64,000 nucleotides of DNA. It comes from Candidatus Krumholzibacteriia bacterium (GTDB taxonomy: Bacteria > Krumholzibacteriota > Krumholzibacteriia > JAJRXK01). The position numbers were made by a program, and so were the translations under genes. How positions within the stretch are numbered: position 1 is the first letter of the stretch; each line of letters opens with the position of its first letter. Shown here in pieces: positions 1 to 21,765 of this stretch. The notes beneath the pieces were generated by a model that saw only the letters and a list, made by a program, of their open reading frames with translations, was not told the DNA's origin and made no database searches. The stretch is from positions 96,001 to 160,000 of the forward strand of contig JBGPIA010000001.1 of the NCBI GenBank assembly GCA_041484665.1. The letters run 5' to 3'.

Positions 1-218
1 ATCTCGATGAGGTGGTTGGCGTTGTACACACTTTTCTGGCGCTCAGAGATTGAACTTCTACCCCGGCTTGTGATAACCTCGTGAACAGGAACTCTCTCTG
101 AACCGGGTTGATCATCCAACCTGAGTGACGGCTCCCCGACAACCCGGGCGCCTATCCAACTCTCGACAACTTCGTCCGCGCTGCCGCAAGCAGCACGCGG
201 CGCACCCAAGGAGGATCC

Positions 219-3200
219 ATGCGATTGGCAAGAGCTAAGTGGCTTGCTGGCGCGTTGCTGCTGGTTCCTGCGCTGGCGAGCGGGGCCCAGTCCCCGACCA
301 GCCGGCCGCCCGTGACACCGGCTGCGGCAGGCGACGGCGCGCAGATCGTGCGTGACGCGCTGGCTTCCTGGGACGGCTGGAGGCCCGGGGCCTCGCCGCA
401 AGCGGCTCTGCGCGTCAACGCGATGCCGAGCACCTATGGCGCGGACACTGGCTCGCCCCAGCCCGCCTCGTGGATCGGCCGAGACAATATTCTCTGGGGA
501 AACGTGACGGGCGGGACGGCCCCCTACACCTACACGGTCGCGTTCGATGACGGCAGCCCGGCTGCCTCCGGCGCCGTCGCCGACCGGCGCTACATCGTCG
601 TGCACCACTCGTACACGACGCTGGGTCCCAAGTTCGTGACGTTGACCGTGCAGGACAACGTGGGAGCGACCGACACGGAGACCTTTCGCATCGACGTCGG
701 CCCCTACGGCATCCAGTCGCGCGTCCAGGCCGCCATCGAGGACGGCCTGCGCTACCTGTACCTGACGCAGCTGTCCAGCGGCCGCTGGAACGCGCCGGCC
801 TCCGAAGGCATCCACGCGCTGGCGTTCCAATTGCGCAATCACGACAAGAGCGCCAACCCGACGAACGACATCTACGCGGAGACGCTCCAGGCCTTCTGGA
901 ACAACATCTTCTCCAGCATGACCCGGTTCCCCATCGGCGCCCAACCCGCTGGCAATCCGGACACCAACGGCAATGGCTACTCCCTCTACGCCAACGGATT
1001 CACGCAGTGCTACAACCACGGAATCCTGATGCTGGCCATGGCCGGGATCAAGGACCTCAACGAGGTCGTCACCGTGGGTAGCGAGGCGGGCCGCACGATC
1101 AAGGATGTCCTGCAGGACATGATCGACCTCGCGGCGTACTCGCAGACCGAGACCGGCGTGGAGCGCGGCGGCTGGCGCTACACCCTGGTCACGTCCAACT
1201 CCGGCAGCGACAACTCGGCCGTCCAATGGGTCGTCCTGGGTATGGTGGCCAGCGAGGGCAGGGGCCTGACGATCCCGGCGTTCGTGAAAACCGAGCTGGA
1301 GATCTGGACGCTCTACAGCCAGGGGGCCGACGGTGGCTTTGGCTATACCGACAAGAACTTCTGGAACAACATCGCCAAGACCGGCTCGGGGCTCATGCAG
1401 CTGGCGTGGCTGCACTACGCACCGACCTCCGCGCAGGTGCTGGCCGCCGCCAACTTCCTGAACGCCCACTGGACGCTCCAGTCCGATAACTTCGGCTACG
1501 CGGAGATGTTCTACACCAACGAGTACGCGATGTACGCCGTGAAGAAGGGGCTCGAGTCGTTCTCGCCGCCCATCTCGTTCATCGCCGCGCACGACTGGCA
1601 GGACGAGTTCAACAAGACACTCGTCTACGACGCGCTCAGCGACTACGACGGCGTGGGCGGGATCGCGTACAACAACGACTTCAACGAGCAGATCTACGGC
1701 ACCGGCGACCTGGTCGACGGACGCTGGACCTCGTCCTACTGGCTCGGCTCCAACGACTACAGCCTGGTGACGGCGGCCCGCGTCCTGACGCTGACCGCTG
1801 GGGTCAGCAGCCTCGTGCCCGTGGCGAACTGCACGGTCACGCCGCCCTCGGCAGGGCCGGGCGTCACCATCACCCTGGACGGCACCGGCTCCTTCCATCA
1901 GGACCCCAACCACGAGATCGTGCAGTACCTCTGGGACTTCGACGCGTCCAACGGAGTCAATTTCGCTCCGCCGGACGGCGTGGGTTCCGTCGTCACCACC
2001 AGCTACTCGCTGGGAGTGGGCGAGCTGTCGCGCACCTTCACGGTGACGCTGCTCGTGCGCGACAACGCGGTGCCGCCCGTGGAGCGCCAGACCACCTGCC
2101 GGGTGGTGATCAGCCGGGAGAACCACCCGCCGGTGGCCGTGCCCGGCGGGCCGTACGCCGCCTGCGTCGGACAGCGGATCTGCGTCGACGGCAGCGGCAG
2201 CTACGACCCCGATGCCGGTGACTTCGTCGCCGAGTACCACTGGGACCTCGACGGAGACGGCCAGTTCGACGATTTCGACGGACCGGCCACCTGCGTGACC
2301 TTCCCGGGGCTCTACGACGGATTCATCGGCTTGCAAGTCGTGGACAGCTTCGGCGTCCCCAGCCAGAACAGCGGCGCCGTAGTCCGGATCTTCACCGCGC
2401 TCGGTGACCTGAGCACTGCGGACTCCGACCTGGTCGTCGACAGCGATGCCGGCTGCGTCCAGGGAGGCCAGACGTGCGTCACGGGCACCTACCGCGTGCT
2501 CAGCGACGATCCCACGTACGTGGTGGCGGCAGCGCGCGTGGACTTCTTCCTGGACGACCCGACCAATCCGGTGAACCGCATCGCGACGTTCACGGACAAC
2601 AACCTGGTGGGCGGCATGACGCTGAGCCATCAGGCCTGCTTCAACCGGCCGGACAACCTGGCGCACGCCGTATTCATGGTGCTCGATCCCAATCAGGTCC
2701 TCAACGAGTGCGTCGAGACCGACAACGTCGCCGTGCACCGTTTCGCGTGCGGGTGCGACGCGCAGCTCGCCGACCTTGCGCTGGTCGGATACGAGACCGT
2801 GTCGTGGGATCCCGGCACTCTCATCTGGGAGGTCCGGGTCAGCATCAAGAACAACGGCCCGGGCACGGCGCACGACGTCAACGCCACGCTCATGGAGGAC
2901 ATCCCCTGGGTGACTCCCGTGGACGGAGCCAGCAGCTACGGGGACATCGCGTCGGGCGACACCAAGTTCGGGGACAGCTTCACGCTGGACCTGACCGGCC
3001 GTCCGGGCGCGGGTGGCTTCAACGTGTTCTTCGACGTATTCTACACGGACAACTGCCAGACGGCCCACGAGGTCCGTCTCGACCCCGAGGCCGTCACCCC
3101 TGGTGAGAATGGCCGCAGCGCGCTGCGGACGTACGCGCTGAGCCAGAACTCCCCCAATCCCTTCAACCCGCGGACGATGATCTCCTTCACGCTGGCCAAT

Positions 3201-3404
3201 CCCGGCCACGTGAAGCTGGAGGTCTTCGACTTGCGTGGCCGTCTGGTCAAGACCCTGGTCGACGCCAATCTCGCGGCGACGCAGCACAGCGTCGACTGGG
3301 ACGGCACCGACCTCACCGGACAGCCCGTGAGCTCTGGCCTGTACTACTACCGCCTGAACGCGGCTGACTTCTCGCAGACTCTCAAGATGACGCTCGTGAA
3401 ATAG
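219..3404 (+). CDS. Secreted multidomain protein: PKD + prenyltransferase/squalene-cyclase-like alpha/alpha barrel + PKD x2 + CARDB-like + C-terminal FlgD-Ig/T9SS-type sorting domain
   Basis: AAGGAGG RBS; signal peptide (MRLARAKWLAGALLLVPALASGA); PKD motifs (FDDGS...HSY, YLWDFD, YHWDLDGDG); QW-like repeats (LTQLSSGRW, SQTETGVERGGWRY, SQGADGGFGY); C-terminus QNSPNPFNP...FDLRGRLVKTL...WDGTD...SGLYYYRL. Confidence 0.85.
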   Translation: MRLARAKWLAGALLLVPALASGAQSPTSRPPVTPAAAGDGAQIVRDALASWDGWRPGASPQAALRVNAMPSTYGADTGSPQPASWIGRDNILWGNVTGGTAPYTYTVAFDDGSPAASGAVADRRYIVVHHSYTTLGPKFVTLTVQDNVGATDTETFRIDVGPYGIQSRVQAAIEDGLRYLYLTQLSSGRWNAPASEGIHALAFQLRNHDKSANPTNDIYAETLQAFWNNIFSSMTRFPIGAQPAGNPDTNGNGYSLYANGFTQCYNHGILMLAMAGIKDLNEVVTVGSEAGRTIKDVLQDMIDLAAYSQTETGVERGGWRYTLVTSNSGSDNSAVQWVVLGMVASEGRGLTIPAFVKTELEIWTLYSQGADGGFGYTDKNFWNNIAKTGSGLMQLAWLHYAPTSAQVLAAANFLNAHWTLQSDNFGYAEMFYTNEYAMYAVKKGLESFSPPISFIAAHDWQDEFNKTLVYDALSDYDGVGGIAYNNDFNEQIYGTGDLVDGRWTSSYWLGSNDYSLVTAARVLTLTAGVSSLVPVANCTVTPPSAGPGVTITLDGTGSFHQDPNHEIVQYLWDFDASNGVNFAPPDGVGSVVTTSYSLGVGELSRTFTVTLLVRDNAVPPVERQTTCRVVISRENHPPVAVPGGPYAACVGQRICVDGSGSYDPDAGDFVAEYHWDLDGDGQFDDFDGPATCVTFPGLYDGFIGLQVVDSFGVPSQNSGAVVRIFTALGDLSTADSDLVVDSDAGCVQGGQTCVTGTYRVLSDDPTYVVAAARVDFFLDDPTNPVNRIATFTDNNLVGGMTLSHQACFNRPDNLAHAVFMVLDPNQVLNECVETDNVAVHRFACGCDAQLADLALVGYETVSWDPGTLIWEVRVSIKNNGPGTAHDVNATLMEDIPWVTPVDGASSYGDIASGDTKFGDSFTLDLTGRPGAGGFNVFFDVFYTDNCQTAHEVRLDPEAVTPGENGRSALRTYALSQNSPNPFNPRTMISFTLANPGHVKLEVFDLRGRLVKTLVDANLAATQHSVDWDGTDLTGQPVSSGLYYYRLNAADFSQTLKMTLVK

Positions 3405-3477
3405 TCGACACCCGCGTGGGGTCGCCCCCAGGGCGGCCCCGCCTGACACGTACGAACTCGGAGGAAAGATCTCAACG

Positions 3478-3588
3478 ATGGAAACGCCCAGCAGGGAGCG
3501 CCGTCCCTACGAGTCCCCGGTGGTCACCAAGCACCAGAGCCTCGCGGACATCACGCTCTTCACGAACTTCGGTCCGCCGGGCAGCTGA
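3478..3588 (+). CDS. Small peptide 1 (36 aa, METPSRERRPYESPVVTKHQSLADITLFTNFGPPGS), putative RiPP precursor with lasso/RRE-type leader
   Basis: Translated by hand; GGAGG at 3460-3464; paralogue at 3869-3994 differs mostly at synonymous positions; followed by an intrinsic terminator. Confidence 0.85.
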   Translation: METPSRERRPYESPVVTKHQSLADITLFTNFGPPGS

Positions 3589-3609
3589 GCCCGCGGCACA
3601 TCGGAGACG

Positions 3610-3646
3610 AGGCCCTCAGCCCGCCGGGCAGAGGGCCTTTCGTTTT
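3610..3646 (+). terminator. Rho-independent terminator after peptide 1
   Basis: AGGCCCTC-a-GCCC-gcc-GGGC-a-GAGGGCCT hairpin followed by TTCGTTTT. Confidence 0.8.
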
Positions 3647-3783
3647 CCCCCCGGCCCCGTCGGCAAGCGTCCGGCCGTGCGCAGTGCGCGGGCAGCCCGC
3701 GGCGCGGGTCGTCCGCAGCGGGAGCAATCGGGAATCTGGGGGCATGACCGGTCGCGGGGGCGGGGGCCGCCGGGGGGGCCGGG

Positions 3784-3813
3784 TTGTCCGCGCGGTGCGC
3801 GCCGTGGTAGAAT
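3784..3813 (+). promoter_or_regulatory. Putative sigma70 extended -10 promoter for peptide 2 and the downstream gene
   Basis: TTGTCC-N18-TAGAAT with TG-n immediately before the -10 box (TGGTAGAAT). Confidence 0.55.
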
Positions 3814-3868
3814 GGATGCCATGGATGAGAGGGGGCGCCCAACCGCAGCATCCCGTAGAGGAGTCCCG

Positions 3869-3994
3869 ATGTCGGCAGATATTTCGGCCAGCCAGGGGTC
3901 CCCGGACCGTCGACCGTACGAGTCACCGGCGATCACCAAGCACCAGAGCCTCAAGGAAATCACCCTCTTCACGAACTTCGGGCCGCCGAGCTGA
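3869..3994 (+). CDS. Small peptide 2 (41 aa, MSADISASQGSPDRRPYESPAITKHQSLKEITLFTNFGPPS), putative RiPP precursor
   Basis: GAGGAG RBS at 3858-3863; 23/27 aa identical to peptide 1 over RRPYESP...FGPP. Confidence 0.85.
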   Translation: MSADISASQGSPDRRPYESPAITKHQSLKEITLFTNFGPPS

Positions 3995-4137
3995 GAGCCG
4001 GCGACTCTCCCGAACGAGCAGTCGCGTCTCAAACCTCCGTCGCTCTCGCATGATCGGGTGAATCGGACGTGGGGCGCCCTTCCCCGGGCGCCCCCGGTCG
4101 TCTGTGCCCTGCGCCGTTGCGCTGGTTGGAGAGGCTC

Positions 4138-6378
4138 GTGCCAGAATCCGTGCGTCGCATCCTCCGTTCCCCGGCCGACTGGGCGCGGGACTCTGCCCGC
4201 TGGCTGGTGGCGATCGTGGCGCTGGTCGTGCCAGCACGGCCCGCCATCGCGCCTGCCGGAAGCAACGCGTGGACCCAGGACGCCGGCCCGTACGGCGGCC
4301 GCATCCTGTGCCTGTTGGTCCACTCCAGCAGTCCATCGAAACTCGTGGCGGGGACGGAGGCTGGTGGCCTGTACGTGAGCGGGGACGGCGGCCAGACCTG
4401 GCAATCGCGCAGCCAGGGCCTCGGCCTGCTCACGGTCAACGACGTGCAAGCCGTTCCGCTGGGCACCAGCACCATCTGCGTGGCGACCAACAACGGTGTG
4501 TACCGCTCGGACAACCTCGGCCAGAGCTGGACGCAGCGCAGCGGCGGGCTGGGATCGCTGCTCACCACCTGCCTGGCGATCCACCCAACCAATGTCGCGC
4601 GGATGCTGTGCGGCACGGTGAACGGGCTCTACGCCACTGCCGATGCCGGCGTGTCGTGGACTCCGGTCAACGCCGGCCTCACCAACAGTTCGGTCGAGCG
4701 CATCCTCTGGGACGTCGGTGGCAACGCGATCTACGCGTGCACCGACGGCGGCGCGTTCCTCAACACCGATCCCCCGGGCACGTGGCTGCCGCGCAGCAAC
4801 GGGCTCAGTGGTCTGGCGCTGTTCACGCGCCAGCTCGTCACCAACCCGGCCGCATCGAGCGAGCTCTACCTTGCCACCTACGGCGGCGTGTTCCACAGCT
4901 TCAGCGGGGGCGGGAGCTGGGAGCTGCACAGCGCGGGCCTGACCGATACCCGGGCGCAAGCACTCTGGATCGACCCCGCCGATGGCATGCACCTGCTGGT
5001 GGGCACCGAGAGCGGAGTGTTCGAGACCTTTGACGGCGCGCTGCACTGGGCCGCGGCCAGTGCGGGCCTCACCGATCGGGTCGTGCGCAGCCTGGCCTAC
5101 GACGGCACGTCGATGCTATGCGGCACGTTTTATCGCGGCGTGCAGCGCCGGACCGGGTCCACCTGGGCGCCGATCAACCAGGGACTGGCCAATACGTTCC
5201 TGCAGGAGATCGCCGTCGACAGCTCGGGGAGCCTGATCGCCGCAGCCGGCTACGGCGGTGTCTATCGCAGCGCGGACGTCGGGAGCAGCTTTGCGCTGGG
5301 CGACGCCGGAATCACCGTGCCCGATGTGCGCACGGTCTGCTTCGATCCCACCAATCCGCAGGTTGTCTTCGCCGGCGCGAACTACGGTGGCGTGTACAAG
5401 TCGACCAACGGTGGCACGACATTCTCGCTGGTGGGGCTGGCCGGGGAGACCGTGCGGGCGATCCGCGTGCACCCGACCAACTCGCTGATCGTCTACGCCG
5501 GGACCTACGATGGCGTCTTCCGCAGCGACAACGGCGGCGGGCTGTGGGTGGCGCGCAGCGCGGGCATGACCGCGGACAACGTCAACGACCTGGAGCTGGA
5601 TCCCACCAACCCCGAGGTCATCTACGCCGGGATCTACCTGGGCTACGTGTACAAGACCAGCAACGGCGGGTTGAGCTGGACGCAGAAGACCAACGGGCTG
5701 GGCGCCAGTATCGTGTTCGACCTGGCCGTCGATCCCGCCGATCCGCAGGTCGTGCTGGCCGCCGGCTTCGAGGGCAAGGGGATCTGGCGCAGCGCGGACG
5801 GCGGCGACACCTGGCACGACGCCAGCACGGGGCTGCCCAACAAGAGCATCTGGAAAGTGAAATTCGACCCGTTCGACGCCTCGCGCGCGTACGCGGCCAC
5901 CCAGGACGGCGTCGCGCGCAGCCTCGACGGGGGCGCCACCTGGGCGGACCTGAGCAACGGACTGCTCGTGAAGGACGTCCGCGACATCGCAGTGGATCCG
6001 CTGAGCTTCCGGACGCTGCGCGCGGCGACCTTCGGCGGTGGCCTCTACACGTTCACGGACATGGCCACGGCGGCCCCCCCCGTCCGGCCGGCGGCGGCCG
6101 AGCTGCATCCCGGCTTTCCCAACCCCTTCAATCCCAGCACGACGCTGGCCTTCGAGCTGCGCGGGGCGGACGCCCGGCGCGTACGCCTGGACGTCTTCGA
6201 CGCGCGCGGGCGCCGCGTGCGTACGCTGCTGGATGCGCCAGCCGATCCGGGCGTGCACCGGGTGACGTGGGATGGGCGCGACGACACCGGCTCGGGTGTC
6301 GCGGGTGGCGTCTACCTGGCGCGGCTGGCCGTCGACGGCCAGGGTGCGGGAGTTCAAAAGCTGACGCTGCTCAAATGA
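4138..6378 (+). CDS. Secreted BNR/Asp-box (VPS10/YCF48-like) beta-propeller protein with C-terminal FlgD-Ig/T9SS-type domain
   Basis: Many SxDGGxTW repeats (SGDGGQTW, STNGGTTF, SADGGDTW, SLDGGATW); C-terminal FPNPFNP...FDARGRRVRTL...WDGRDD..G..VAGGVY; start re-chosen at GTG 4138 after GGAGAGG (4150 also possible). Confidence 0.85.
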   Translation: MPESVRRILRSPADWARDSARWLVAIVALVVPARPAIAPAGSNAWTQDAGPYGGRILCLLVHSSSPSKLVAGTEAGGLYVSGDGGQTWQSRSQGLGLLTVNDVQAVPLGTSTICVATNNGVYRSDNLGQSWTQRSGGLGSLLTTCLAIHPTNVARMLCGTVNGLYATADAGVSWTPVNAGLTNSSVERILWDVGGNAIYACTDGGAFLNTDPPGTWLPRSNGLSGLALFTRQLVTNPAASSELYLATYGGVFHSFSGGGSWELHSAGLTDTRAQALWIDPADGMHLLVGTESGVFETFDGALHWAAASAGLTDRVVRSLAYDGTSMLCGTFYRGVQRRTGSTWAPINQGLANTFLQEIAVDSSGSLIAAAGYGGVYRSADVGSSFALGDAGITVPDVRTVCFDPTNPQVVFAGANYGGVYKSTNGGTTFSLVGLAGETVRAIRVHPTNSLIVYAGTYDGVFRSDNGGGLWVARSAGMTADNVNDLELDPTNPEVIYAGIYLGYVYKTSNGGLSWTQKTNGLGASIVFDLAVDPADPQVVLAAGFEGKGIWRSADGGDTWHDASTGLPNKSIWKVKFDPFDASRAYAATQDGVARSLDGGATWADLSNGLLVKDVRDIAVDPLSFRTLRAATFGGGLYTFTDMATAAPPVRPAAAELHPGFPNPFNPSTTLAFELRGADARRVRLDVFDARGRRVRTLLDAPADPGVHRVTWDGRDDTGSGVAGGVYLARLAVDGQGAGVQKLTLLK

Positions 6379-6543
6379 CTGGCGCAACCGCCAGGGCGGC
6401 AGCGCCCGGCGTCAAGCCTGGAAGCTGCGGGCGCGCACGCGTGGATGGGCAGCGAGTGGCCGCGAGCACGACCCAGGGAGCCGCCTGCGCGTTGGGCGAG
6501 CGCTTGAAGCCCGGCAGTCGATCCGCCGGTGCACGAGCGGGGG

Positions 6544-9500
6544 TCACGAGCGCGCACGTGCTGGAACGGAACCTGGGGCGTGGCGCGAACCTGCGTCCCG
6601 GGAGATCGCCAGGCCGGCGAGCAGCCACAGCAAGGCCGCGGCCAAGAGCGGCGTACCGCGTGTCGGGTCACGGCTCGCCAGAGAGCCCTCCGCAGGCTGC
6701 GCGGCTCCTGCGTGCCCCCAACCGGCCGCCGAGAGAGCCGCCAGCCGCACGGCATCCACGCCGCGCGCGCGCAACTCTGCGGCCGGATCGTCGGCGAACG
6801 CCACGTCCAGCCCTGTGGCGCCCGTGCTGTCGATGACGCGCACGGGGTCCGCCAGCGACGGGCCCACTGGACGTAACACGCCGGGCACGACGGCCTCCAG
6901 CGCGACGGTGTCGCCCAGTGCGTCCACCAGCGCCAGTCCGCTCGCATGTCCATCCGCGAGCCCTCCCGCCGTCGTCAGGCCTGGCTCGTTCGCCGGGACG
7001 AGCGACCAGGGTGGTGTCGACGACTCTACGCGCAATCGGGGAGCGCTCCCTCCCTCCCAGCGCACGCGCGGTTGCTCCTGTCGCGTGAGCCACGCCAAGA
7101 GCTGCGCCACCGCCGCGGGCCAGCGCGCGTCCTCTGGATTCCACGGCGGGCCCGCTGTGCTGGCCAGCACGGCCATACGGCCGGGGCCAAACGAACCCAG
7201 CGCCAGCAGCGGGTCGCGCTGCAACCCCGCGCTCCAGGCCACCTGCGCCAGTTGCGGCGTCAGAGCCACATAGCGTACTGCCCCCGCCGGCAGCAGCGCG
7301 CTCCACGCCGCCAGCTCCGCGCGCGCGGGCTGCGGCGCGGCGACGAATCGATCGCGTGGTGCCGAGTCCACCGTGCGCGCCAGTACCTCACCGAGCTCCT
7401 GGAAGCGGCGCAGCACCAGATGGCGCCCGCCGGTGCGCGCGGCCAGCTCGCGCAACGCCGGCGTGCCCCGCGTTCCGACCTCGATCGCCGTCACCGGCAG
7501 GTCGCCGACGGCGTCGAGCCAGGACTGCAGCGACTCGTCGCCGGTCACACCATCGCTGAGGACGACGATGCGCCGCGCGCGCGGGGGCTTTGCCGCGACG
7601 CCGGCGCTCCCATCGCCAGCAGCGGCGGCCTGCAGGAGACCGGCGGCTTCCTGCAGCGCCGGGCGCAGCACCGTGCCGCCCGAGGCGTGCACGCCCCGCA
7701 GTGCCTCCTGCACCTGGGTCAGCGTGCGCCGCGGCTGCGGCGGGAGCGTGCGCAGCACCCGGTCGGCGAAGGCGACCAGCCCGACGCGCTCGCTGGCCTC
7801 GGCGGCGCGCAGCGCGCCGGAGAGGGCGAGCAGAGCGCGGTCGAGCTGCGAGACGCCGTCCTCCAGCGTCGCCATGCTGCCGGAGACGTCCAACAGGAAG
7901 ACCCAGTCCCCACGCGAGGGATCGCGCTCCTCGCGCACCTGCAGGCGGACGGGAAGCCGTTCCTCCAGCGCCAGACGGCCGCTCTCACCCCGCTGCAGCC
8001 AGTCGCCCGGGCCCGCGAGCAGCAGGAGCCCCGTGCCCAGGTCCATGGCGCGCAAGACCTGGACCTGCAGCGCTGCCACCAGCGATTCCGGACACGCGTC
8101 GAGCACCCAGACGTCGGGACGGCCGCCGGCGGGCGGCTGTGGCAAGGAGGTCGTGCGCTCGCCCGAGGCGGCGGTCCAGCGAACCGTCGGCAGTGGCCCC
8201 GTGCTCCAGCCGTAGGCGAGGATGTCGTCCTGCGGCCAGACGTCGCGAGGCCCCGCAGCCTCCGGCTGCAGCTCGGCGGTGATGGTGTGGGCGCCCGTGG
8301 CCAGCGGTGGCAGCGGCAAGGCCAGCCGCACGAGCGCTCCGTTCGCTTGCGGGTCGCGCTGCGCCACGCCGTCGCGCACCAGCGCGGCGAGATCGCGGTC
8401 CAGCAGGACGCGCCCGTCGAGCGTCACGGCGAGCCGGCGCTCGGCGTCGCCCGGATCGAGCGCCAGCGTCAGCGTGCGACCCGCCCCGGCGGCCTGCTGC
8501 TCGACGCGCAGCTGCGTGACGGACGCGTCGCCGCTGCGCCCCGCCGGCGCTGCTGCGATGGAGCATTCACCGACGGGCAGTGACGCAGCAAGCGCTTGGG
8601 GCGTGTCCTCGAAGCGGCCGTCGCTGACGAGCAGCACCCGCGGCGCACGCAGGCGCGTGGCGCCCATCAGCCGGCGCAACGGCGCCGCCAAGCGCGTGTG
8701 CGGTGGCGTGGGGAGATCCCGCAGGCCCGCCTGCAGCCAGCGTTCGAGCTCCACGGGAGTGAACGGCCAGGCCCGGCGAGGGGTGGGTGGGAGCAGCCAC
8801 CGACCGTCCTCCCCGTCGAGCGCCGCCACGGCCAGCCGCTGCCCGGGCCCGGCCGCGCCCAGGAACTCCCGCAGCGCCGCAGCGGCGGCCGCAGGGGCCA
8901 GCGCGCGGCAGCTGGGAGATGCGTCGACGATGAGCACGCAGTCCCCGGCCGACGGCCGCAGCGCCAGGGCCAGCAGGGCCAGCAGCGCGATGCCCAGGCC
9001 CGCGCGGCGACGGCGCGGCCACCTGGCCAGCGCCAGCGCCGCGGCCGAGACCAACCAGGCGGCCGCAGCGAGCCAGGGCGAGAGGGCAAGGTCCGTCCCC
9101 GCTCCGCCGGTGCGGCCTCCTGTGGCGGCGGCCGCCAGCGCGCCCGGCGACACAGGCTCGCTGCCGGCGGCCGGCAGTTCGCCGGGACGCGTCAGAGCCG
9201 CGGGCCAGTTGAACCGCGGGGAGGAGAGGCCAGGCCCCGCGCACACGTCCTGGGCGGGCAGCAGCGCCCGCGCCACGCGCAGGGCCGCCAGGGCCGGGCC
9301 GAGCGATCCATCGGGGGCTGCGGGGTCGGGCAGGTTCACGACCGCGGCACGGGACTCCCAGAGCAGGATCCTGCCCCCGGCCATCGCGGCCCACTGCACA
9401 CCCAAGTCGAGTACGCCGCAGGCGCGGGACACGCCCGCAAGGTCTAGCCCCGCCGCCGGCCCCGCGAACTCCAGCGCGCCCGACCCGTCGTCCAGCTGGG

Positions 9501-10728
9501 GGCCCGTACGGCTGGAACGGAGCTCCTCCAGCCGGAGGCCGGGAGCTGCGCCGGCCCGCGGCGCGATCCACTCCCAGCACAGGCTATCTGGGAAGGCCGG
9601 TGGCGCGTCGCCGACCACCACCAGGAGCTCGTGCTGGGCGCTGCCGGTCCGCCCGCGTTGGGCGCGCCACCGCGCCCACTCCGCCGCGTCGGGCCGCGGG
9701 GGCAGGCGCGCGCGGTCGACCCTGCGCAGGTCGATGGCCGGCCAGGCCTCCACGGCCGTTGCCCAGGGGGAGCCGGCTGCGGACACGAGCCAGACCAGAG
9801 GCGGCGCAGGCAACTCCAGCACCTGACGCTCGGCAGACGATTGCGTGAGCGGCGCAGCTCCCGGCAGAACGTGCGGTAGCGGGCCGTGCCGCGTGGCGCG
9901 GGACTCGAGCTCGACGGTGATCCGTCGTCGCGCACGGCGCCCGGGGTCCGCACCCGGCTCCGGCGGGCTGGGCGGCGTCGGCACGAGCGCCGGATCGATC
10001 TCGACTGCGCCGCGCCCCTGCGCATCGAGCGGGATCTCCTGCGAGGCACCGGCGGTCTCGGCCACGACGCTCGTGGTGGGGCCGGCACCCTCGACCGCCA
10101 CGCAGAGTCGACCGGCCAGGTCGAGATGCGCGAGCGACAATCGCGGGCCGGCCTCGCCGCCGGGCGCAGCGAGCCGGTGCGCTCGCCAGCGGCCCCGCGT
10201 TGCAGGCGGCTCTCGCCAGCAGAACACCTCCACTGCGCGCAGGGGATCGGGGGCGAGCGCGCACAGGAGCTCGCCCAGCGTCGGCCCGGCGGGGTCCACG
10301 GAGCTCTCCCGCGCCGAGGCCAGGTCCGGGAACGGACCGGTGGGCGACCGGCCCGCGCAGTAGATCTCCACCCCCGCCGCAGCGGCCGCCAACGCGGCGA
10401 TGGTCTCCTCCACGGGGCGGCGCGTCGCGTCAGGGGCCTCCAGCGTACCGGCGTCCAACAGCACCACCGCGCGCGACGGCAAGGCGGGCGAAGGGCGCAG
10501 CGGCGCCGCGAGCGCGCCGATCCAAAGCACCCCTGCTACCAGCGTCAGCCACGCCCGCGGATCGCGCCAATGGATGCGGCGGCGCGCCGGTGCGCGCCCG
10601 GGCTCGTCGGCGAACAGCCAGACGGGAGCGAATCGCTGCCGCAGCGCGCCGCCCCGTCGCAGCAGCAAGGCCACGACCAAGAGGAGTGGCACGAGCAACA
10701 ACAAGGAGACTGGACGCAACAAGCTCAT
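6544..10728 (-). CDS. Large membrane-anchored VWA-domain protein (BatA-like N-terminus, several VWA domains)
   Basis: N-terminal hydrophobic helix; VWA starts VLLDAGT, LIVDASPS..VSDG and FLLDVSGSM..GGT..LSDG; C-terminal TM; lies downstream of MoxR/DUF58. Confidence 0.75.
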   Translation of the reverse strand: MSLLRPVSLLLLVPLLLVVALLLRRGGALRQRFAPVWLFADEPGRAPARRRIHWRDPRAWLTLVAGVLWIGALAAPLRPSPALPSRAVVLLDAGTLEAPDATRRPVEETIAALAAAAAGVEIYCAGRSPTGPFPDLASARESSVDPAGPTLGELLCALAPDPLRAVEVFCWREPPATRGRWRAHRLAAPGGEAGPRLSLAHLDLAGRLCVAVEGAGPTTSVVAETAGASQEIPLDAQGRGAVEIDPALVPTPPSPPEPGADPGRRARRRITVELESRATRHGPLPHVLPGAAPLTQSSAERQVLELPAPPLVWLVSAAGSPWATAVEAWPAIDLRRVDRARLPPRPDAAEWARWRAQRGRTGSAQHELLVVVGDAPPAFPDSLCWEWIAPRAGAAPGLRLEELRSSRTGPQLDDGSGALEFAGPAAGLDLAGVSRACGVLDLGVQWAAMAGGRILLWESRAAVVNLPDPAAPDGSLGPALAALRVARALLPAQDVCAGPGLSSPRFNWPAALTRPGELPAAGSEPVSPGALAAAATGGRTGGAGTDLALSPWLAAAAWLVSAAALALARWPRRRRAGLGIALLALLALALRPSAGDCVLIVDASPSCRALAPAAAAAALREFLGAAGPGQRLAVAALDGEDGRWLLPPTPRRAWPFTPVELERWLQAGLRDLPTPPHTRLAAPLRRLMGATRLRAPRVLLVSDGRFEDTPQALAASLPVGECSIAAAPAGRSGDASVTQLRVEQQAAGAGRTLTLALDPGDAERRLAVTLDGRVLLDRDLAALVRDGVAQRDPQANGALVRLALPLPPLATGAHTITAELQPEAAGPRDVWPQDDILAYGWSTGPLPTVRWTAASGERTTSLPQPPAGGRPDVWVLDACPESLVAALQVQVLRAMDLGTGLLLLAGPGDWLQRGESGRLALEERLPVRLQVREERDPSRGDWVFLLDVSGSMATLEDGVSQLDRALLALSGALRAAEASERVGLVAFADRVLRTLPPQPRRTLTQVQEALRGVHASGGTVLRPALQEAAGLLQAAAAGDGSAGVAAKPPRARRIVVLSDGVTGDESLQSWLDAVGDLPVTAIEVGTRGTPALRELAARTGGRHLVLRRFQELGEVLARTVDSAPRDRFVAAPQPARAELAAWSALLPAGAVRYVALTPQLAQVAWSAGLQRDPLLALGSFGPGRMAVLASTAGPPWNPEDARWPAAVAQLLAWLTRQEQPRVRWEGGSAPRLRVESSTPPWSLVPANEPGLTTAGGLADGHASGLALVDALGDTVALEAVVPGVLRPVGPSLADPVRVIDSTGATGLDVAFADDPAAELRARGVDAVRLAALSAAGWGHAGAAQPAEGSLASRDPTRGTPLLAAALLWLLAGLAISRDAGSRHAPGSVPARARS

Positions 10729-10765
10729 GGATCTCGCCGCAGGATCGTAGACGCGCACCGAGCGC

Positions 10766-11629
10766 TCAGGAGGTCACGACGAGGCCTGCGGCGCGCAGTG
10801 GGCCCATCAGCGCCGCCTCCCAGGATTGCGCGGCGTCCACGTCCACCACGCGCACGCCCGCCGCACGCAACGCCGCCGTACGCCGAGTCCGGTGGTGGAG
10901 CAAGCGCGCGCGTGCCGCGGCGACGGTCGGCGGGTCGAGGACCGTTTGCCGGCGCCCACGCCCCTCCGCGTCGAGCAACTCCACGGCCTCCCCCGTCGCC
11001 ACCAGCGGGTCGTCGGGATGGGTGAGCACGATCACCCAGCCCGGCGAGGGGCCCGCCAGCGCTGCGACCCAGCCCCCGGCGGGAGCGTCATCGAGGAAGT
11101 CGGTCAGCACGACACTCACCCCGCGTGGCGCGCCGCGCAGCAGCGACGCGAGCGCTGCGGCCGGTGCGCGACCGCCGCAGGCGAGCCCGCGCAGCCTTGC
11201 TGCAAGCATGGCGCTGCTGCTGCGGCCATGGGCCACCGTCACGAGCGTTCGAGGCGGGTCGGCCAGCGCCGAGAGGCGCACGTCCTCCAGCCCGGCCAGG
11301 CCGATCGCCGCGAGCGCGGTGGCGATCTCGCGCGCGCGGTCGTAGCGCTCTGGAAAGGCTGCGCCCATGGACCCGCTCGTATCCAGGATCAGGTGCAGGC
11401 GCTGCTCGCGATCGCGGCGGTAGGTGCGGACGACCGGGCGATCCAGTCGCGCCCACGCGCGGTGATCGATGCGCCTTGGATCGTCGCCGAGAGCGTAAGG
11501 GCGGTGCCCGGCCAGCGTCTGCCCCTGGCCGGTGAGCGCCGTCGAGACGCTGCCGGGACGTTCGCCGAGGGCGAGCTTCTCGGAGGCCAGCGCCAGCCGG
11601 TCGAGCAGCGGCCCTCCCACCTCACGCAT
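10766..11629 (-). CDS. DUF58 domain protein (MoxR partner)
   Basis: HRPYALGDDPRRIDHRAWAR, LILDTSGSM, VVLTDFL; start overlaps the moxR stop. Confidence 0.85.
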   Translation of the reverse strand: MREVGGPLLDRLALASEKLALGERPGSVSTALTGQGQTLAGHRPYALGDDPRRIDHRAWARLDRPVVRTYRRDREQRLHLILDTSGSMGAAFPERYDRAREIATALAAIGLAGLEDVRLSALADPPRTLVTVAHGRSSSAMLAARLRGLACGGRAPAAALASLLRGAPRGVSVVLTDFLDDAPAGGWVAALAGPSPGWVIVLTHPDDPLVATGEAVELLDAEGRGRRQTVLDPPTVAAARARLLHHRTRRTAALRAAGVRVVDVDAAQSWEAALMGPLRAAGLVVTS

Positions 11630-12644
11630 CGGCTTGGACCTCGGACAACAGCCGCACGATCGCCTGCTCGATGGTGTCGCCCTCGGCCTCGCGCTCGTAG
11701 CGCAGCCGCAGCCTGTGTCGCAGCGCCGCAGGCGCGGCGGCCCGCACGTCCTCGAAGGCGATGTGCTCGCGGCCCGCGGCGAGCGCACGCACGCGCCCGC
11801 AGCGCAGCAGCGCCAGCATCGCGCGCGGCCCGGCGCCCTGGCGCAGCCCCCCGGCCACGCCGCGCGCTGCGCTCTGCGGGTGAGTGGCAAGCACCAGCCG
11901 CGCCGCGTAGCGCGCGACCGCGTCGGCGACGGGAACCTGCGCGGCCGCGGCAATCGCCTGCACCGTGCCCGCGGGCTCGAGCACGGCGCTCGGCAGCGCT
12001 GCTGTGCCCGCACCGTGCCGGCGGAAGATGTCCACCAGCGCGGCCTCGCCCGGGGACTCGATGCGCGCCTGTAACAGGAAGCGGTCCAGCTGCGCCTCGG
12101 GCAGCGGGTAGGTGCCTTCCAGGTCGAGGGGATTCTGCGTGGCCACGACGAAGAAGGGGCGCGGCAGCGCGAAGGTCGCGCGGCCGATGGTAACCGTCCC
12201 CTCCTCCATGGCCTCCAGCAGCCCCGCTTGCGTGCGCGGGGTGGCGCGATTGATCTCATCGGCCAGGATCACGTTGGCAAAGACGGGCCCTTGGTGGACG
12301 TCGAAGCGCACGCTCCCGTCGGCGCCGCGCGCGAGCACCTCGCTTCCGGTGATGTCGGTGGGCATCAGATCCGGCGTGAACTGCACGCGCGAGAATCGGC
12401 CGCCCAACAACGATCCGAGCGTACGCACCAACAGCGTCTTGCCCAGACCGGGCACGCCCTCGATCAGGATGTGCCCGCCGCCGAGCAAAGCCCACAGCAC
12501 CTCGTCGATGAGCGGCTCCTGCGAGACGATGATCTGCGCGAGCCCGCTGCGCAGCGCCGCGTGGGCCCGGGCGAACGTGTCGAGGGCCGCGTCGGACGCC
12601 GCCTTGGAGCGTAGGTTGCTGGTAGGCCCGCTGGATTGGGTCAT
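11622..12644 (-). CDS. moxR: MoxR-family AAA+ ATPase
   Basis: GHILIEGVPGLGKT, RVQFTPDLMPTD, LADEINRATPRTQAGLLEAM, ATQNP..EGTYPLPEAQLDRF. Confidence 0.95.
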   Translation of the reverse strand: MTQSSGPTSNLRSKAASDAALDTFARAHAALRSGLAQIIVSQEPLIDEVLWALLGGGHILIEGVPGLGKTLLVRTLGSLLGGRFSRVQFTPDLMPTDITGSEVLARGADGSVRFDVHQGPVFANVILADEINRATPRTQAGLLEAMEEGTVTIGRATFALPRPFFVVATQNPLDLEGTYPLPEAQLDRFLLQARIESPGEAALVDIFRRHGAGTAALPSAVLEPAGTVQAIAAAAQVPVADAVARYAARLVLATHPQSAARGVAGGLRQGAGPRAMLALLRCGRVRALAAGREHIAFEDVRAAAPAALRHRLRLRYEREAEGDTIEQAIVRLLSEVQADA

Positions 12645-13963
12645 GGCTTGCCTCCAGGCGAGGTGGTGTCGGCTTGCGCTTGAGAGTTCCGCGGCTGTGG
12701 ACTGTCGGGCGCGCCCCGCGCGGCGCGCAGCGCGCGCAACGCGTGCTCCGCGCGGAGCAGGTAGTCGCGCTCCAGGCGCGAGAACGCGCGCCCCTGGCCG
12801 TCCCTCAGGAGGAGCGTGCGGTCCGCGCGCGCAGCGTCACCGGAGGGCGCGCCGGCCAAAGGCCCTGGCCGCGCGCGCGCGATCAGGTCAGGCGCCAAGG
12901 CGGGGGTGGAGCGCGAGCGGTCGCCGCCAGGCACGAGCGCCCGATCCAGAGTCGGCGCCTGCGGCAGCGTCAGCGCCCGTCCGTCCGGAGCCCGCGCTGG
13001 AGCGCGGCCCGTGCCTTCTCCCTGCGGCGAACCCTCGGGCGCCTGCGCACCGGCCGGCGTTCGTGTCCGCACGGTCATGCCCAAGGCCTCCGCGCGTTGC
13101 GCGCCGTCGCGCAGCAGCGCAGAGGCGTCGACGGCGAGCGTCTCGCCGGGCGCGTGACCACTGCGCTGCGACGCGCCGGCGCGCTGGGCGGACGGCAGCT
13201 GCGCACCCGGCGGCGCGGGCAGGATCTGCGGCACGGTCAGGGTCGCTTTGGGCGGTGACGCGGGCGCTGGTTGCGGGCGCTGCGCCGTGTGGCTGGATCC
13301 CGCCGCGCGCGTCAGCTGCGCCGCGGAGGTGTCGACCGCAGCGGGGGCCACACGCCACCCGGCCGCGGACTGGGCGCGGGAGCCAGCGCGCGGCGCCGGG
13401 ACCATCGCAAGACCTACCGCGCCGGCCAGCACGAGCGCGCAGGCAGGATGCAGTCGCGCTGGTAGCGGCCCAGGGACCGCAGCGCCGGTGCGGCGCGCCA
13501 GCCGCGTCCGGAACGGCTCCTGCGGCGCCCGCAGGAAGCTGCGCCAGATCAGATCGGCACCGTCGAGCCCGGCACCAGCGGAAGCAGGCGCTGCGAAGGA
13601 CCGCCGCGCGTCGCGGGCGCCGGTGTGGCGGTCGAGCCATCGCGCCGCGGACTCCAGCCGAGGTCCCGGTCCGCTGGCCAGCCCCGCCAGCGCGCACGCG
13701 CCAAGCGCGCCCTGGAGCAGACAGGCGCCGATCGTGACGCCCCAGCGCCACGCGACGACCCCCAGCAGCGCTCCGGCCGCTATCAGCGCCACAGAGTGGG
13801 CGCGGCGGCGCTGTCGGAGTCGCCCGAGCACCTCGGCGAGCCGCTGCCGAGCGACCGCCAGCTCTGCGGACTCCGCGGCCGACCCCGCAGTCGAATCCGC
13901 GGCCGACCGCTGCGCCGGCGCTGCACGGGCGGGTCCGCGCTGCGCGCCACGGTCAGAACCCAC
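12641..13963 (-). CDS. Hypothetical membrane protein (MoxR-operon associated, Pro/Ala-rich C-terminal region)
   Basis: GGAGG 7 nt before GTG 13963; two N-terminal TM helices then AARWLDR; ATGA overlap with moxR. Confidence 0.6.
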   Translation of the reverse strand: MGSDRGAQRGPARAAPAQRSAADSTAGSAAESAELAVARQRLAEVLGRLRQRRRAHSVALIAAGALLGVVAWRWGVTIGACLLQGALGACALAGLASGPGPRLESAARWLDRHTGARDARRSFAAPASAGAGLDGADLIWRSFLRAPQEPFRTRLARRTGAAVPGPLPARLHPACALVLAGAVGLAMVPAPRAGSRAQSAAGWRVAPAAVDTSAAQLTRAAGSSHTAQRPQPAPASPPKATLTVPQILPAPPGAQLPSAQRAGASQRSGHAPGETLAVDASALLRDGAQRAEALGMTVRTRTPAGAQAPEGSPQGEGTGRAPARAPDGRALTLPQAPTLDRALVPGGDRSRSTPALAPDLIARARPGPLAGAPSGDAARADRTLLLRDGQGRAFSRLERDYLLRAEHALRALRAARGAPDSPQPRNSQAQADTTSPGGKP

Positions 13964-14813
13964 GATCGACCTCCACCAGCCAGCGCGAGCGCGCGGCGGC
14001 ACCCGTCGCGCCCGCGAGCGCCACGCCCCACAGCGCGACGGCGATGAGGGCCCAGGCCGTGACAGCTGCGAGCGCGACGGGCGGGACGAGCGCCCTCGGC
14101 GCCGAGGGGCCCTCGGCCCACGCCGGGCGTAGCGCGCCCAGCGGTGTGGCGCGTGCCAGCGCGCGGCACAGCCAGCTCGCGAGGTCGGTGGGCCACACCA
14201 GTTGGGTGCCACGCACCGCGAGCAGGGCGCACGGTAACGTGAGCAGCGCCACCATCAAGATCCCCATCGCAGGACGCTCGCGGCCGGGGCCCTCGGTCCA
14301 CGCGCCGAGCACCCCGCAGGCTACGGCCGCGGCGCCGTACAGCACCCCCATCACCACCAGCGCCCCCGATTCGGCGGGCACCCACCCCCCCAACCCGATC
14401 AGCAGGAAGGGGAGGAGCCACCATGACGCGGTGAGCTCCCCGAGCTGCGCCCCGGCACGCCGCCCCACCAACAGCACCACGTGCCGGCGCCCGGCTCCGC
14501 GCAGCAGGGCCTCCTGCACGAGACCCGACGCCGCCAGCGCGCGCCAACTTCCGCGCCCCATCACGGGGCCGAGCAGCCCAAGTGCGAGCAGCCAGAGCCC
14601 CGCGGCCACGGCCCCGGCGTGGCGTGCCTCCAGCAGCTCACCGCGCCCCGACGCCTCAATGACCCCCGCGAGGGCGACCAGCGGCACGATGGCGAGCCCC
14701 GTGTGGGTCAGGAGCGCCCCGGCGGCAGCAGCGCGGCTCCTTCCCCGCCCGTGCACGACGCGAACCGCCTGACCGCCGGCGTCTGCACCCATCCTTTCCA
14801 CTGCACGACTCAC
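13953..14813 (-). CDS. Multi-pass membrane protein, ABC-2 permease-like
   Basis: About 6 hydrophobic segments; GTGA overlap with the upstream ABC ATPase-like gene. Confidence 0.6.
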   Translation of the reverse strand: MSRAVERMGADAGGQAVRVVHGRGRSRAAAAGALLTHTGLAIVPLVALAGVIEASGRGELLEARHAGAVAAGLWLLALGLLGPVMGRGSWRALAASGLVQEALLRGAGRRHVVLLVGRRAGAQLGELTASWWLLPFLLIGLGGWVPAESGALVVMGVLYGAAAVACGVLGAWTEGPGRERPAMGILMVALLTLPCALLAVRGTQLVWPTDLASWLCRALARATPLGALRPAWAEGPSAPRALVPPVALAAVTAWALIAVALWGVALAGATGAAARSRWLVEVDRGF

Positions 14814-15664
14814 AGTGTCTCTTCTCCGTCCTGCAGCCAGACGCTCGCCGGGGGCGGCGTGCTCGCCAGCAGCCAGCGTGCGGCCTCGCGTGCCTGCTCG
14901 GCTGACGAGAATGGGCCCAGCCGGCAGGCACCGCCGCGCAGGCCGACCCGCCAGCGTCCGGCCAGTCCGCGCGCGGATGCTTCGCGCTGCAACGTGGCCA
15001 CCGACCCGCAGAAGCGCGCCCAGACCCACGGGCTGCGTCCGTTGGCAGGCGGGACACAACGATCGGCCAGCATGGCGGCCTCGGCGCTGCCATCGCAGAG
15101 CACGATCGCCACGCCGTCGGCGGCGGCCTGCGCCAGGGCCGCTGCCAAGATCGTGCGATCGTCGGCCTCCAGCCCATCCAGCGGGTGAGCGGCCAAGAGC
15201 ACCGCGGGGCGGTGCAACAGGGCGACGGCCAGACGTACGCCGTGCCGCATCCGCGCCGGCAGAGCGCCCATCGGCGTGCGCGGCCAGGGCTCTGGCAGCC
15301 AGAGCTCGAAGCGGCTGCGGGCTTGCGCCAGGGCGTCGGGCGGCGTCCGTCGCCAGCGCGCGACGCGCCGCAGGATCTGCTCGGGCGTCTCCTCCCGCTC
15401 GTAGCCGCCCTCCTGCGGTAGGAATGCCAGCGCGCGGCGCGCCGCGTCCAGGGCGGTGGCAGTGTCGTGTCCTGCGACCATCAGGCGGCCCGCCAGCGGC
15501 GCGTCCAGGGTGCAAAGCACGTGGAGCAGCGCACTCGGGAACTCTGCGCCCGGCATGCGCAGGCAGACGATCTCGCCGGCAGCCACGGCCAGGTCCACCG
15601 GCCCGCGTTCGCCTGCGGGGGTCCGGTAGCGCACACCGGCCGCCGCAAGCTGCGCCTCGCCCAT
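14810..15664 (-). CDS. ABC transporter ATP-binding-like protein with degenerate motifs
   Basis: VDLAVAAGEIV, FLPQE Q-loop, ALLHRPAVLL..HPLDGLE; Walker A and B are not canonical; start chosen after GGAGAGG. Confidence 0.7.
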   Translation of the reverse strand: MGEAQLAAAGVRYRTPAGERGPVDLAVAAGEIVCLRMPGAEFPSALLHVLCTLDAPLAGRLMVAGHDTATALDAARRALAFLPQEGGYEREETPEQILRRVARWRRTPPDALAQARSRFELWLPEPWPRTPMGALPARMRHGVRLAVALLHRPAVLLAAHPLDGLEADDRTILAAALAQAAADGVAIVLCDGSAEAAMLADRCVPPANGRSPWVWARFCGSVATLQREASARGLAGRWRVGLRGGACRLGPFSSAEQAREAARWLLASTPPPASVWLQDGEETL

Positions 15665-15777
15665 CGGCCTCTCCGGCATTAGTTTAGCACCTCGTCGGGG
15701 CCGGCCGGTCCAGAGCGGCACGGGCATGGCGGCAGGCCGCAGGGGCCGGCTTGGAGCGGCAGCGAAAGGCGGACACG

Positions 15778-16641
15778 ATGATGCTCGGCTTCTGCAGCAA
15801 CGCGTATACGCGCCACAGCCTCGAGGAGGCGATCGACCGCGTCGCGCGCGCGGGCTACGCCGGGATCGAGCTGTTGTGCGATACGCCCCACTACTGGCCG
15901 CCCGATGAACCCCCCGACCGGGCGCGCCGTCTGGCCGAGCGGCTGCGCCACGCCGGCATCGCCGCCTCCAATATCAACGCGAATACAGCGATTGGCGCGT
16001 ACGGCGCCGCCATCCCCGAGAACGTGTTCGGCCCCTCGCTGGCCAGCCCCGACCCGCAGGTGCGCGCGTTCCGCCTGGACCATGTGCGAGCGGCGATCGA
16101 CCTGGCCGTCGCCGTCGGCGCCCCCTGCGTTTGCGTCAGCAGCGGCTGCACGGAGTCGGACCATCCACCCGAGGCCGCCCTCGACGTGTTGCGGCGGTCC
16201 CTGGAGGAGTTGCTCGCGTACGCGCAGCCTCGGGGCATCCGCATCGGCGTCGAGTCCGAGCCTGGCCTGCTGCTGGAGCGCAGCGACGAGGTGGCCGCGC
16301 TGATCGCGAAAGTGGGGCATCCGCTCCTCGGTTTCAATCTCGATGTCGGACACGCGGTCGTGATGGAGGAGGACCCAGCGGCAGTGATCGCCGACCACGG
16401 CGCGCGCATCTGGCACCTCCATCTGGAGGACATCGCAGGTGGCAAACACTACCACCGGACCCCCGGTGAGGGGGATGTGGACTTTGCTGCGATCGCGCGC
16501 GCGCTGCGCGCGGCGCGCTTTGGCGGGTACGCATCCGTAGAGCTCTACGCCCACAAGGCCGATCCTGACGCGGCGGCGCGCGGGGCGCTGGCCCACCTCG
16601 CACCATTGTTCGCGCCGCCCGCGCCCGATCGGGCGCGTTGA
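15778..16641 (+). CDS. Sugar phosphate isomerase/epimerase (xylose-isomerase-like TIM barrel)
   Basis: AGYAGIEL, IGVESEPG, NLDVGHA, HLHLED, HYHRTPGEGDVDF, SVELY metal-binding motifs. Confidence 0.85.
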   Translation: MMLGFCSNAYTRHSLEEAIDRVARAGYAGIELLCDTPHYWPPDEPPDRARRLAERLRHAGIAASNINANTAIGAYGAAIPENVFGPSLASPDPQVRAFRLDHVRAAIDLAVAVGAPCVCVSSGCTESDHPPEAALDVLRRSLEELLAYAQPRGIRIGVESEPGLLLERSDEVAALIAKVGHPLLGFNLDVGHAVVMEEDPAAVIADHGARIWHLHLEDIAGGKHYHRTPGEGDVDFAAIARALRAARFGGYASVELYAHKADPDAAARGALAHLAPLFAPPAPDRAR

Positions 16642-16776
16642 CCGCAGCTCGGGCGGCCCCTATCCTGGCAGTTCAGCGCAGGCGCGCCGCCGGGCTGCGC
16701 CACGCGCGGCGTCACGGTCGCGCAGCAGCGCGCACCCCCGCCGCGCTCGAGTGTGCCCCCAGCAGAGGGAGCGAGC

Positions 16777-17841: not shown

Positions 17842-17846
17842 CGCGC

Positions 17847-18851: not shown

Positions 18852-18916
18852 CAGAACCAGGCAGCGGCGCGCGGCGGCGCCGGGCGGCCAAGCGGGCGAG
18901 CGCGGGAGGAGGAGAC

Positions 18917-20224: not shown

Positions 20225-20429
20225 CCCCACCGCCCCGTATCCGGCGCGGGGCGCCGCTGGGGCCCCGGCTCAAAGCGACTCCGCGCCCGGCGCGCCCGCC
20301 GGGGCGGCGCAGCGACCGGCGGAAATCCTTGACCGGCCGGTGGGCCAGGGGTACACCCTTGGCGGCTTGTCGCGCGGCCCGCGCGTTCCTCGCGGGTAGG
20401 CCTGTGGCGCCCCAAGGGATGGTCGACGC

Positions 20430-21668: not shown

Positions 21669-21765
21669 CCGCTCTTGCGCAAGTGCCCTCCAGCCTGCAA
21701 GGTTGGAGGCGCCACGCTCCCACCGGAGCTCTGCTCGACCCGCGCTTCACATCCGCGCCAGAGGC

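Follow-up and report, generated by a model that had tools for sequence, protein, structure and literature searches.

The two small open reading frames analysed here encode, with a probability of about three in four, precursors of a cyclase-less, lasso-derived linear phosphopeptide pathway that resembles the one making the linear polyphosphorylated peptides (LPP). They lie in a 64,000-nt stretch of contig C1 of a Candidatus Krumholzibacteriia genome (labelled G000), which we call the window and in which position 1 corresponds to C1:96001. The genes of this pathway, their intact catalytic motifs, their co-inheritance and linkage, and the register of the conserved precursor residues were established in this analysis.

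Precursor 1 (ORF1, 3478..3588, + strand) has 36 aa, made up of a leader that ends in ITL and a predicted core, FTNFGPPGS, in which the predicted phospho-acceptor Thr is encoded at 3562-3564. Precursor 2 (ORF2, 3869..3994, + strand) has 41 aa and the predicted core FTNFGPPS. A third precursor (C16:59755-59925, - strand) combines the core FTNFGPP with a 16-residue tail; it and ORF2 are present in a public protein library as P0002 and P0006, respectively. We reproduced exactly the two ORFs and translations given in an earlier note on this DNA, as well as its tally for the 27 shared codons, of which six differ synonymously and four, all in the leader, non-synonymously, and saw again the in-frame 3-nt indel that follows the shared stretch. 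The ribosome-binding sites that it had reported correspond to the RBS-like sequences GGAGG at 3460-3464, at a rather long spacing of 13 nt before the ORF1 ATG, and AGGAG at 3859-3863, 5 nt before ORF2. The identity between ORF1 and ORF2 is 86% over 81 coding nt, 35% in the 60 nt after the stops and 20% in the 60 nt before the shared stretch, so that the similarity is limited to the coding stretch. Uncorrected pN/pS, which is computed here from few sites at high GC, is 0.26 for ORF1 and ORF2 and ranges from 0.18 to 0.67 over all 15 pairs of six homologues, staying below 1 in 15 of 15. The coding-only similarity and these ratios bear out the earlier suggestion of selection on a peptide and indicate that, judged by sequence, both ORFs are genuine RiPP precursors under selection. 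The three G000 peptides match no Pfam or NCBIfam model, and a PDB sequence search with the precursor profile gave no match.

Three maturation genes lie upstream on the same strand. The first is an RRE/PqqD gene (C1:94332-94607, + strand; PF05402, E 5.6e-21), the second a lasso-type B2 cysteine protease gene (C1:94622 or 94694 to 95044, + strand; PF13471, E 2.8e-13) with invariant Cys, His and Trp, and the third an HprK-like peptide kinase gene (C1:95064-96053, + strand; TIGR04352, E 6e-8, below the cut-off), the 3' end of which occupies window positions 1..53. The His, P-loop and Asp-Asp motif of the kinase are invariant in 6 aligned rows, HprK structures are its best PDB matches, and the catalytic Cys and His of B2 are invariant in 9 aligned rows. 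The statement that no RRE, protease or maturase gene is adjacent to the precursors is true inside the window only, because the cassette ends at window position 53. Enzymes acting purely in trans, as had been proposed, are not what we found, since the RRE, B2 and kinase genes are 3.4-5.1 kb upstream of the precursors. The genome search recommended in the same note did recover both a PqqD/RRE gene, which is the sole PF05402 match in G000, and a B2 protease. In the RRE, Asn and Asp align with G42 and Q79 of PbaB1, to which the Tyr-leader-selecting positions N33 and D70 of LppB are equivalent (PMC13381572). A search with a single kinase sequence returned one related locus, which has the same gene content as a locus found already.

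The wider surroundings of the cassette were also recorded. An operon on the - strand (window 6544-15727) encodes, to go by sequence appearance, a large vWA-domain membrane protein, a DUF58-like protein, a MoxR-like AAA ATPase and ABC-type proteins; this operon and the cassette are together inserted between lpdA and sugar-nucleotide genes. The sugar-nucleotide block (window 15751-22827, + strand) contains isomerase-like, two NDP-sugar epimerase/dehydratase-like, UDP-glucose dehydrogenase-like and MraY-like genes. It is conserved and flanks the cassette site across family f1 (also at L060, L070, L072, L073 and L107), and at the site beside it G002, G003 and G007 retain the RRE gene only. Two short ORFs at window 63101-63480 (+ strand) resemble what we take to be fragments of an IS256-type transposase.

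Between the kinase gene and ORF1 lies a large gene for a secreted protein with a barrel domain, and a GC-rich hairpin separates it from ORF1 (3416..3448, + strand; z -2.46, 4 of 200 shuffles as good). This hairpin is a possible stability or processing element. A second hairpin, with a U-rich 3' side, follows ORF1 (3603..3647, + strand; z -3.72, 0 of 200 shuffles as good) and is likely to be the terminator of an RRE-B2-kinase-barrel-ORF1 unit, although a consensus terminator scan did not call it. Before ORF2 we found a sigma-70-like promoter with an extended -10 element (3784..3813, + strand; TTGTCC-18-TAGAAT, TG present). It is the only such site in positions 1-6600, and it is weak on its own because 0.3 +/- 0.6 are expected by chance. 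The hairpin after ORF1 and the promoter-like site before ORF2 therefore raise the possibility that the two ORFs form separate transcription units.

We then looked at which residues are conserved in the precursor family. A search of the public protein library gave 55 proteins, of which 54 were parsed and one (P0047), with an ill-fitting leader, was set aside; the 54 include the seeds and two of G000's own peptides. The conserved positions are Y1, P4, V6, H9, L12, T16 and S/T19. Thr at -2 is found in 51 of the 54, Leu at -1 in 49 and Ser or Thr at +2 in 52. The residue at Tyr+18 is Ser in 26 members and Thr in another 26, including the window peptides. All 20 precursors of the 11 genomes with a cassette have Ser or Thr at +2, and the two are never mixed in one genome: Thr is used in five genomes (9 peptides) and Ser in six (11 peptides). 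This suggests, but does not show, that the split reflects kinase specificity, because it follows family lines. The lasso/RRE-type leader recognised in the earlier note is present, with Tyr at -17, Pro at -14 and Thr at -2, and the alignment supports a B2-type cut after T-L, in agreement with the cleavage after T-x predicted there. That the Bsf B2 protease cleaves with Tyr at -17 also supports the predicted cut in the window peptides. A phosphosite at a C-terminal Ser, of the PadeK type, fits both window peptides and was judged unlikely, as only 8 of the 54 end in Ser.

The enzyme that would act after the kinase is encoded elsewhere in the genome. A nucleotidyltransferase gene (NTase; NTP_transf_5, PF14907, E 9e-32) lies at C10:24650-about 25750 on the - strand, and its product is 42-44% identical to the cassette-encoded NTases of G008 and G001, of which it is, judging by this resemblance, the orthologue. 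Its structural model (pLDDT 75) matches MenT1 and nucleotidyltransferases of the ANT(2'')-Ia type, whereas a PDB sequence search with the NTase profile gave no match. An ANT(2'')-like fold has likewise been reported for PsmN, which is needed for hexose capping of the phosphate in pseudomycoidin (PMC6993621). The orphan NTase gene faces that of a 1496-aa FlgD-type secreted protein (G000:C10:20104-25750). G001 has what looks, by N-terminal similarity only, like a relative of this protein at a distance of 3 kb from a precursor (L027).

To see how the system is distributed, we searched 208 genomes of the phylum. A 17-sequence precursor alignment used as a profile found 25 places in 14 genomes, of which 17 were the seeds and 8 were new, in four genomes; of 16 weaker places inspected in detail, six proved to be precursors and the other ten matched by chance. 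A 6-sequence kinase profile matched 16 genomes, 11 of them at the orthologue threshold (E <= 1e-88) and 5 weakly, over the P-loop region only. Every one of the 11 genomes with a kinase orthologue also has a precursor and an NTase orthologue, and B2 is complete in 10 of them and partial in G087. Because the genomes are kin, these counts are not independent events; G064, G070, G087 and G101 were absent from both seed alignments. The layout of the cassette varies. It is RRE-B2-kinase-ABC-2 facing NTase in G001 and G008, precursor-RRE-kinase facing ABC-2-NTase-B2 in G042, and RRE-B2-kinase-precursor facing NTase in the compact loci of G005, G007 and L111, which contain no further enzyme. No cyclase, radical SAM enzyme or P450 was found in any layout of the relatives' cassette loci. 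An ABC-2 exporter is within the cassette in seven relatives (G001, G008, G042, G046, G064, G070 and G101), and G000 has no orthologue of their ABC-2 permease. A scan of metagenomes, limited to cores of the pattern [F/Y]-T-x-F-G, gave 4 loci, all of them precursors.

Three genomes of one genus (G004, G006 and G009; 93, 96 and 88% complete) have precursors without kinase and B2. Their NTase is absent (G004), carries catalytic substitutions (G006) or contains stops (G009), and Thr at -2 is lost in 3 of their 5 precursors, so that the rest of the system appears from sequence to decay where kinase and B2 are missing. At L026 (G009:C8), several genes near the cassette site look frameshifted, pdh genes as well as the NTase; since the pdh genes are affected too, part of the apparent decay in G009 could be assembly error. 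Other RRE loci of the phylum (L062, G046:C19; L074, G035:C8; L067) have HprK-like kinase, NTase or radical SAM-like genes, and L067 (on G030:C7) includes, at positions 8526-8696 of the locus, a candidate precursor of the YxxP type whose core is different and contains Cys.

Homology to LPP, Bsf and Psm leads us to infer leader binding, phosphorylation, cleavage and capping in the following order. The discrete RRE would bind the YxxPxV leader and present the precursor to the HprK-like kinase, which would phosphorylate, and possibly polyphosphorylate, the Thr 18 residues after the Tyr. The B2 cysteine protease would cut after T-L and free F-pT-N-F-G-P-P-(G)-S, the predicted product, and the PF14907 enzyme, acting in trans, would probably cap its phosphate further with a nucleotide or sugar. 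Export of the peptide is probable, which is a guess, and its role as an extracellular signal or an envelope-associated ligand is a guess as well. Against this pathway it counts that in G000 the NTase gene is on a different contig from the cassette and no orthologue of the relatives' ABC-2 permease was found, that LppK does not accept Thr at the LPP phosphosite (PMC13381572), and that even in LPP the NTase product is unresolved in the available text of the same report. The register of the phosphosite is also not universal, because the BsfK site is one residue further from the Tyr.

The precursors are flanked by genes for two secreted proteins, both of which reappear beside the system in different families. 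Upstream is a 1061-aa protein (219..3404, + strand) with PKD, alpha/alpha barrel, further PKD repeats and a FlgD/T9SS-type C-terminal domain. The barrel model (pLDDT 90.7) has a fold like that of squalene-hopene cyclase and GH76 at 10-13% identity. Downstream is a BNR/sortilin-like beta-propeller protein (4138..6378, + strand; 746 aa as publicly called, P0125), also with a FlgD/T9SS-type C-terminal domain. PDB sequence searches with both proteins returned PKD or BNR matches only. Several other secreted proteins of G000 end in a short 'WG..K' motif. We considered the barrel as an obligatory maturase, LanC-like or prenylating, and rejected it: strong matches occur in 3 of 11 cassette genomes, the protein is secreted, and elsewhere the domain is fused to many unrelated domains.

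These neighbours bear on an alternative in which the phosphopeptide is an intermediate: the NTase-activated phospho-Thr would be used on, in a cyclic phosphoramidate with the freed N-terminus or as a glycan-attachment primer, and the secreted propeller and barrel would bind or finish the product at the surface. We regard this as unlikely. In its favour, the best propeller matches in the phylum (E <= 1e-32) are confined to G000, G008, G046, G064, G070 and G087, six of the 11 cassette genomes, and always lie beside a precursor or kinase gene, while 17 other genomes match only at E >= 1e-21. The barrel has strong matches in three genomes (G000, G070 and G087), all of which carry a copy next to a precursor, and on the metagenome contigs L108 and L110 its orthologues again adjoin precursors. 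A FlgD-type gene lies within 400 nt of 9 of the 25 precursor loci, compared with 127 of 1281 gaps (10%) in G000, a background that comes from this genome only and from a profile that may miss divergent genes. Furthermore, in family f1 the cassette has sugar-nucleotide genes as neighbours, as LPP clusters are located in capsule loci, and the final structure of LPP is itself unknown according to the available text (PMC13381572). However, a close propeller match is missing from 5 of the 11 cassette genomes and a barrel match from 8, so neither protein is essential; weaker barrel matches turn up in four genomes that lack the system, and the two folds are widespread among unrelated secreted proteins. 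FlgD-type genes are abundant, with the domain in 194 of the 3595 called genes of G000, and sugar-nucleotide genes flank RRE-only remnants too. The predicted complex of the propeller with unmodified precursor 1 scored 0.01, with no controls folded, and we count it neither for nor against binding. Since neither of them occurs throughout and their folds are widespread, we consider the two proteins accessory, linked to the system in some lineages, with the propeller a candidate partner; co-regulation or shared mobility accounts for the linkage as well as binding does. In its boldest form, to which we give an equally small chance, miniature phospho-Thr or phospho-Ser peptides would have their PF14907-activated phosphate converted to a new linkage (a nucleotidyl or glycosyl cap, or a cyclic phosphoramidate with the B2-freed N-terminus) and would be read or displayed by a dedicated T9SS-secreted beta-propeller. 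If true, this would provide the first partner and function for LPP-type peptides.

It is less probable still that the peptide has an intracellular role, that of a phospho-regulated adaptor or signal, and is no secreted natural product. The missing exporter orthologue in G000 and in the compact G005 and G007 loci, and the scattered precursor copies with their own promoter-like site, would fit such a role, but the cassettes of the seven relatives named above include an ABC-2 exporter and leader removal by B2 implies a released product.

A lasso system with a trans-acting cyclase, or a decaying remnant of one, is largely refuted and retains only a very slight probability. RRE (B1), B2, kinase and NTase are all parts of lasso clusters, G000 has six AsnB-family genes, and 18 of the 54 family cores have Asp or Glu at positions 7-9. 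Nonetheless, none of the 208 genomes reaches the NF033535 lasso-cyclase cut-off (the best match scores 262 of 525 bits, and 163 genomes have AsnB-type matches). All six AsnB genes of G000 keep the N-terminal Cys-Gly-Ile of glutamine-dependent enzymes; four lie amid glycosyltransferase or polysaccharide genes and none is near a precursor. The window cores contain no Asp or Glu, which together with the cyclase search upholds the earlier view that a lasso macrolactam is not formed, and 19 of the 54 family cores have just 6-8 residues. Decay is contradicted by the purifying selection and the intact active sites.

Triceptides are defined by a conserved aromatic-x-x motif. Cross-linking of the aromatic residues in trans, whether by a radical SAM enzyme of the triceptide type or by a P450, was suggested in the earlier note and can be set aside as the least credible reading. 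All three G000 cores do contain F-x-N and F-x-x-F, and the genome does contain the SPASM (three genes), P450 (one gene, 32 kb from the C16 copy) and AsnB genes whose presence the note had asked about. However, none of these is linked to a precursor, the single PqqD match is not overlapped by any SPASM gene, TIGR04085 gives nothing over its cut-off in G000, and a search of 5 related cassette genomes found P450 in 0 of them. Aromatic-x-N and aromatic-x-x-aromatic occur in only 8 and 18 of the 54 family members (Leu is at +1 in 20); the conserved residue is Ser/Thr at +2, and the co-inherited enzymes are kinase and NTase.

The linear phosphopeptide pathway that we prefer is closest to LPP, described by Popov et al. 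2026 for lppA-K-B-S-D-N of Paenibacillus alginolyticus (PMC13381572). LPP clusters encode an RRE, an HprK kinase, an NTP transferase, an MsbA-like exporter and an SpI-like peptidase, are described there as restricted to Bacillota, and have the precursor consensus YxxPxVLxHQxIxFETxxS, whose final Ser is a proven phosphosite; the available text leaves open what the NTP transferase does and which biological function the peptides have. The G000 system shares with LPP the discrete Tyr-selecting RRE with a YxxPx[V/L] leader, an HprK-like kinase with an intact motif, an uncharacterised NTase (in trans in G000, in the cassette in relatives), the lack of a macrolactam cyclase, and one to three precursors with a conserved N-terminus and a variable tail. 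The seven conserved precursor positions are in the same register as in LPP, and the acceptor at Tyr+18 coincides with the phosphorylated Ser3 of LPP. The two differ in the leader protease, which is a B2 cysteine protease here and the SpI-like LppS in LPP; because B2 replaces LppS, the predicted cut is one residue later here, with the acceptor at +2 instead of +3. They also differ in the acceptor, which in the G000 lineage is the Thr that LppK rejects, in the length of the core (8-9 residues here, 45 in LPP), in the exporter (ABC-2 or none here, and no MsbA-like exporter in the G000 locus), in the dispersed precursors with linked T9SS-type secreted proteins, and in the host, a diderm candidate phylum and not Bacillota. 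The LPP family is delimited by its SpI-like peptidase gene. Because an SpI/SipW-like leader peptidase (TIGR02228) has no match in G000, which is 93.65% complete, and B2 is present instead, the system appears to work like LPP yet lies outside the family as delimited.

Among phosphorylated lasso clusters, Bsf of Bradymonas sediminis (Duan et al. 2023, PMC10368454) likewise has B1, B2, kinase and NTase, YxxPxL at -17 to -12 and, as predicted here, phosphorylation near the core N-terminus. BsfK performs RRE-assisted phosphorylation of Ser3 before cleavage and also accepts Thr. Bsf differs in encoding a cyclase and in its precursor, which has Gly1/Asp8, Ile at -2 and an acceptor located at +3 (Tyr+19). 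The paeninodin and pseudomycoidin systems (PadeK; PsmK and PsmN; PMC6993621, PMC9266682) use the same enzyme families, and PsmN, with its Asp-x-Asp motif, offers a model for the capping step, but both have a cyclase and phosphorylate the C-terminal Ser that is so rarely conserved here. Lasso peptides in general share B1, B2 and Thr at -2 and differ by their lasso cyclase and by a core in which a tail accompanies an Asp or Glu at 7-9, a residue that none of the three G000 cores has there. According to the parts of PMC9266682, PMC7470986 and PMC12710340 available, roughly one in two discrete RREs of the lasso type has no cyclase and peptidase nearby. A term search of six supplements of PMC13381572 found no mention of Krumholzibacteriota, and in the literature outside subscription journals we found neither an account of a cyclase-less cluster that depends on B2 nor one of the system in this phylum.

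Taken together, the sequence comparisons point to a real and conserved RiPP system, a variant of the LPP kind, which would extend linear phospho-RiPPs beyond Bacillota. They also suggest that B2 and SpI can replace each other as leader protease without a change in the phosphosite register. Synthesisable cores of 8-9 residues with one obvious acceptor, a minimal set of four enzymes, natural Thr-only and Ser-only lineages and candidate surface partners should make the open questions about LPP easier to address in this system.
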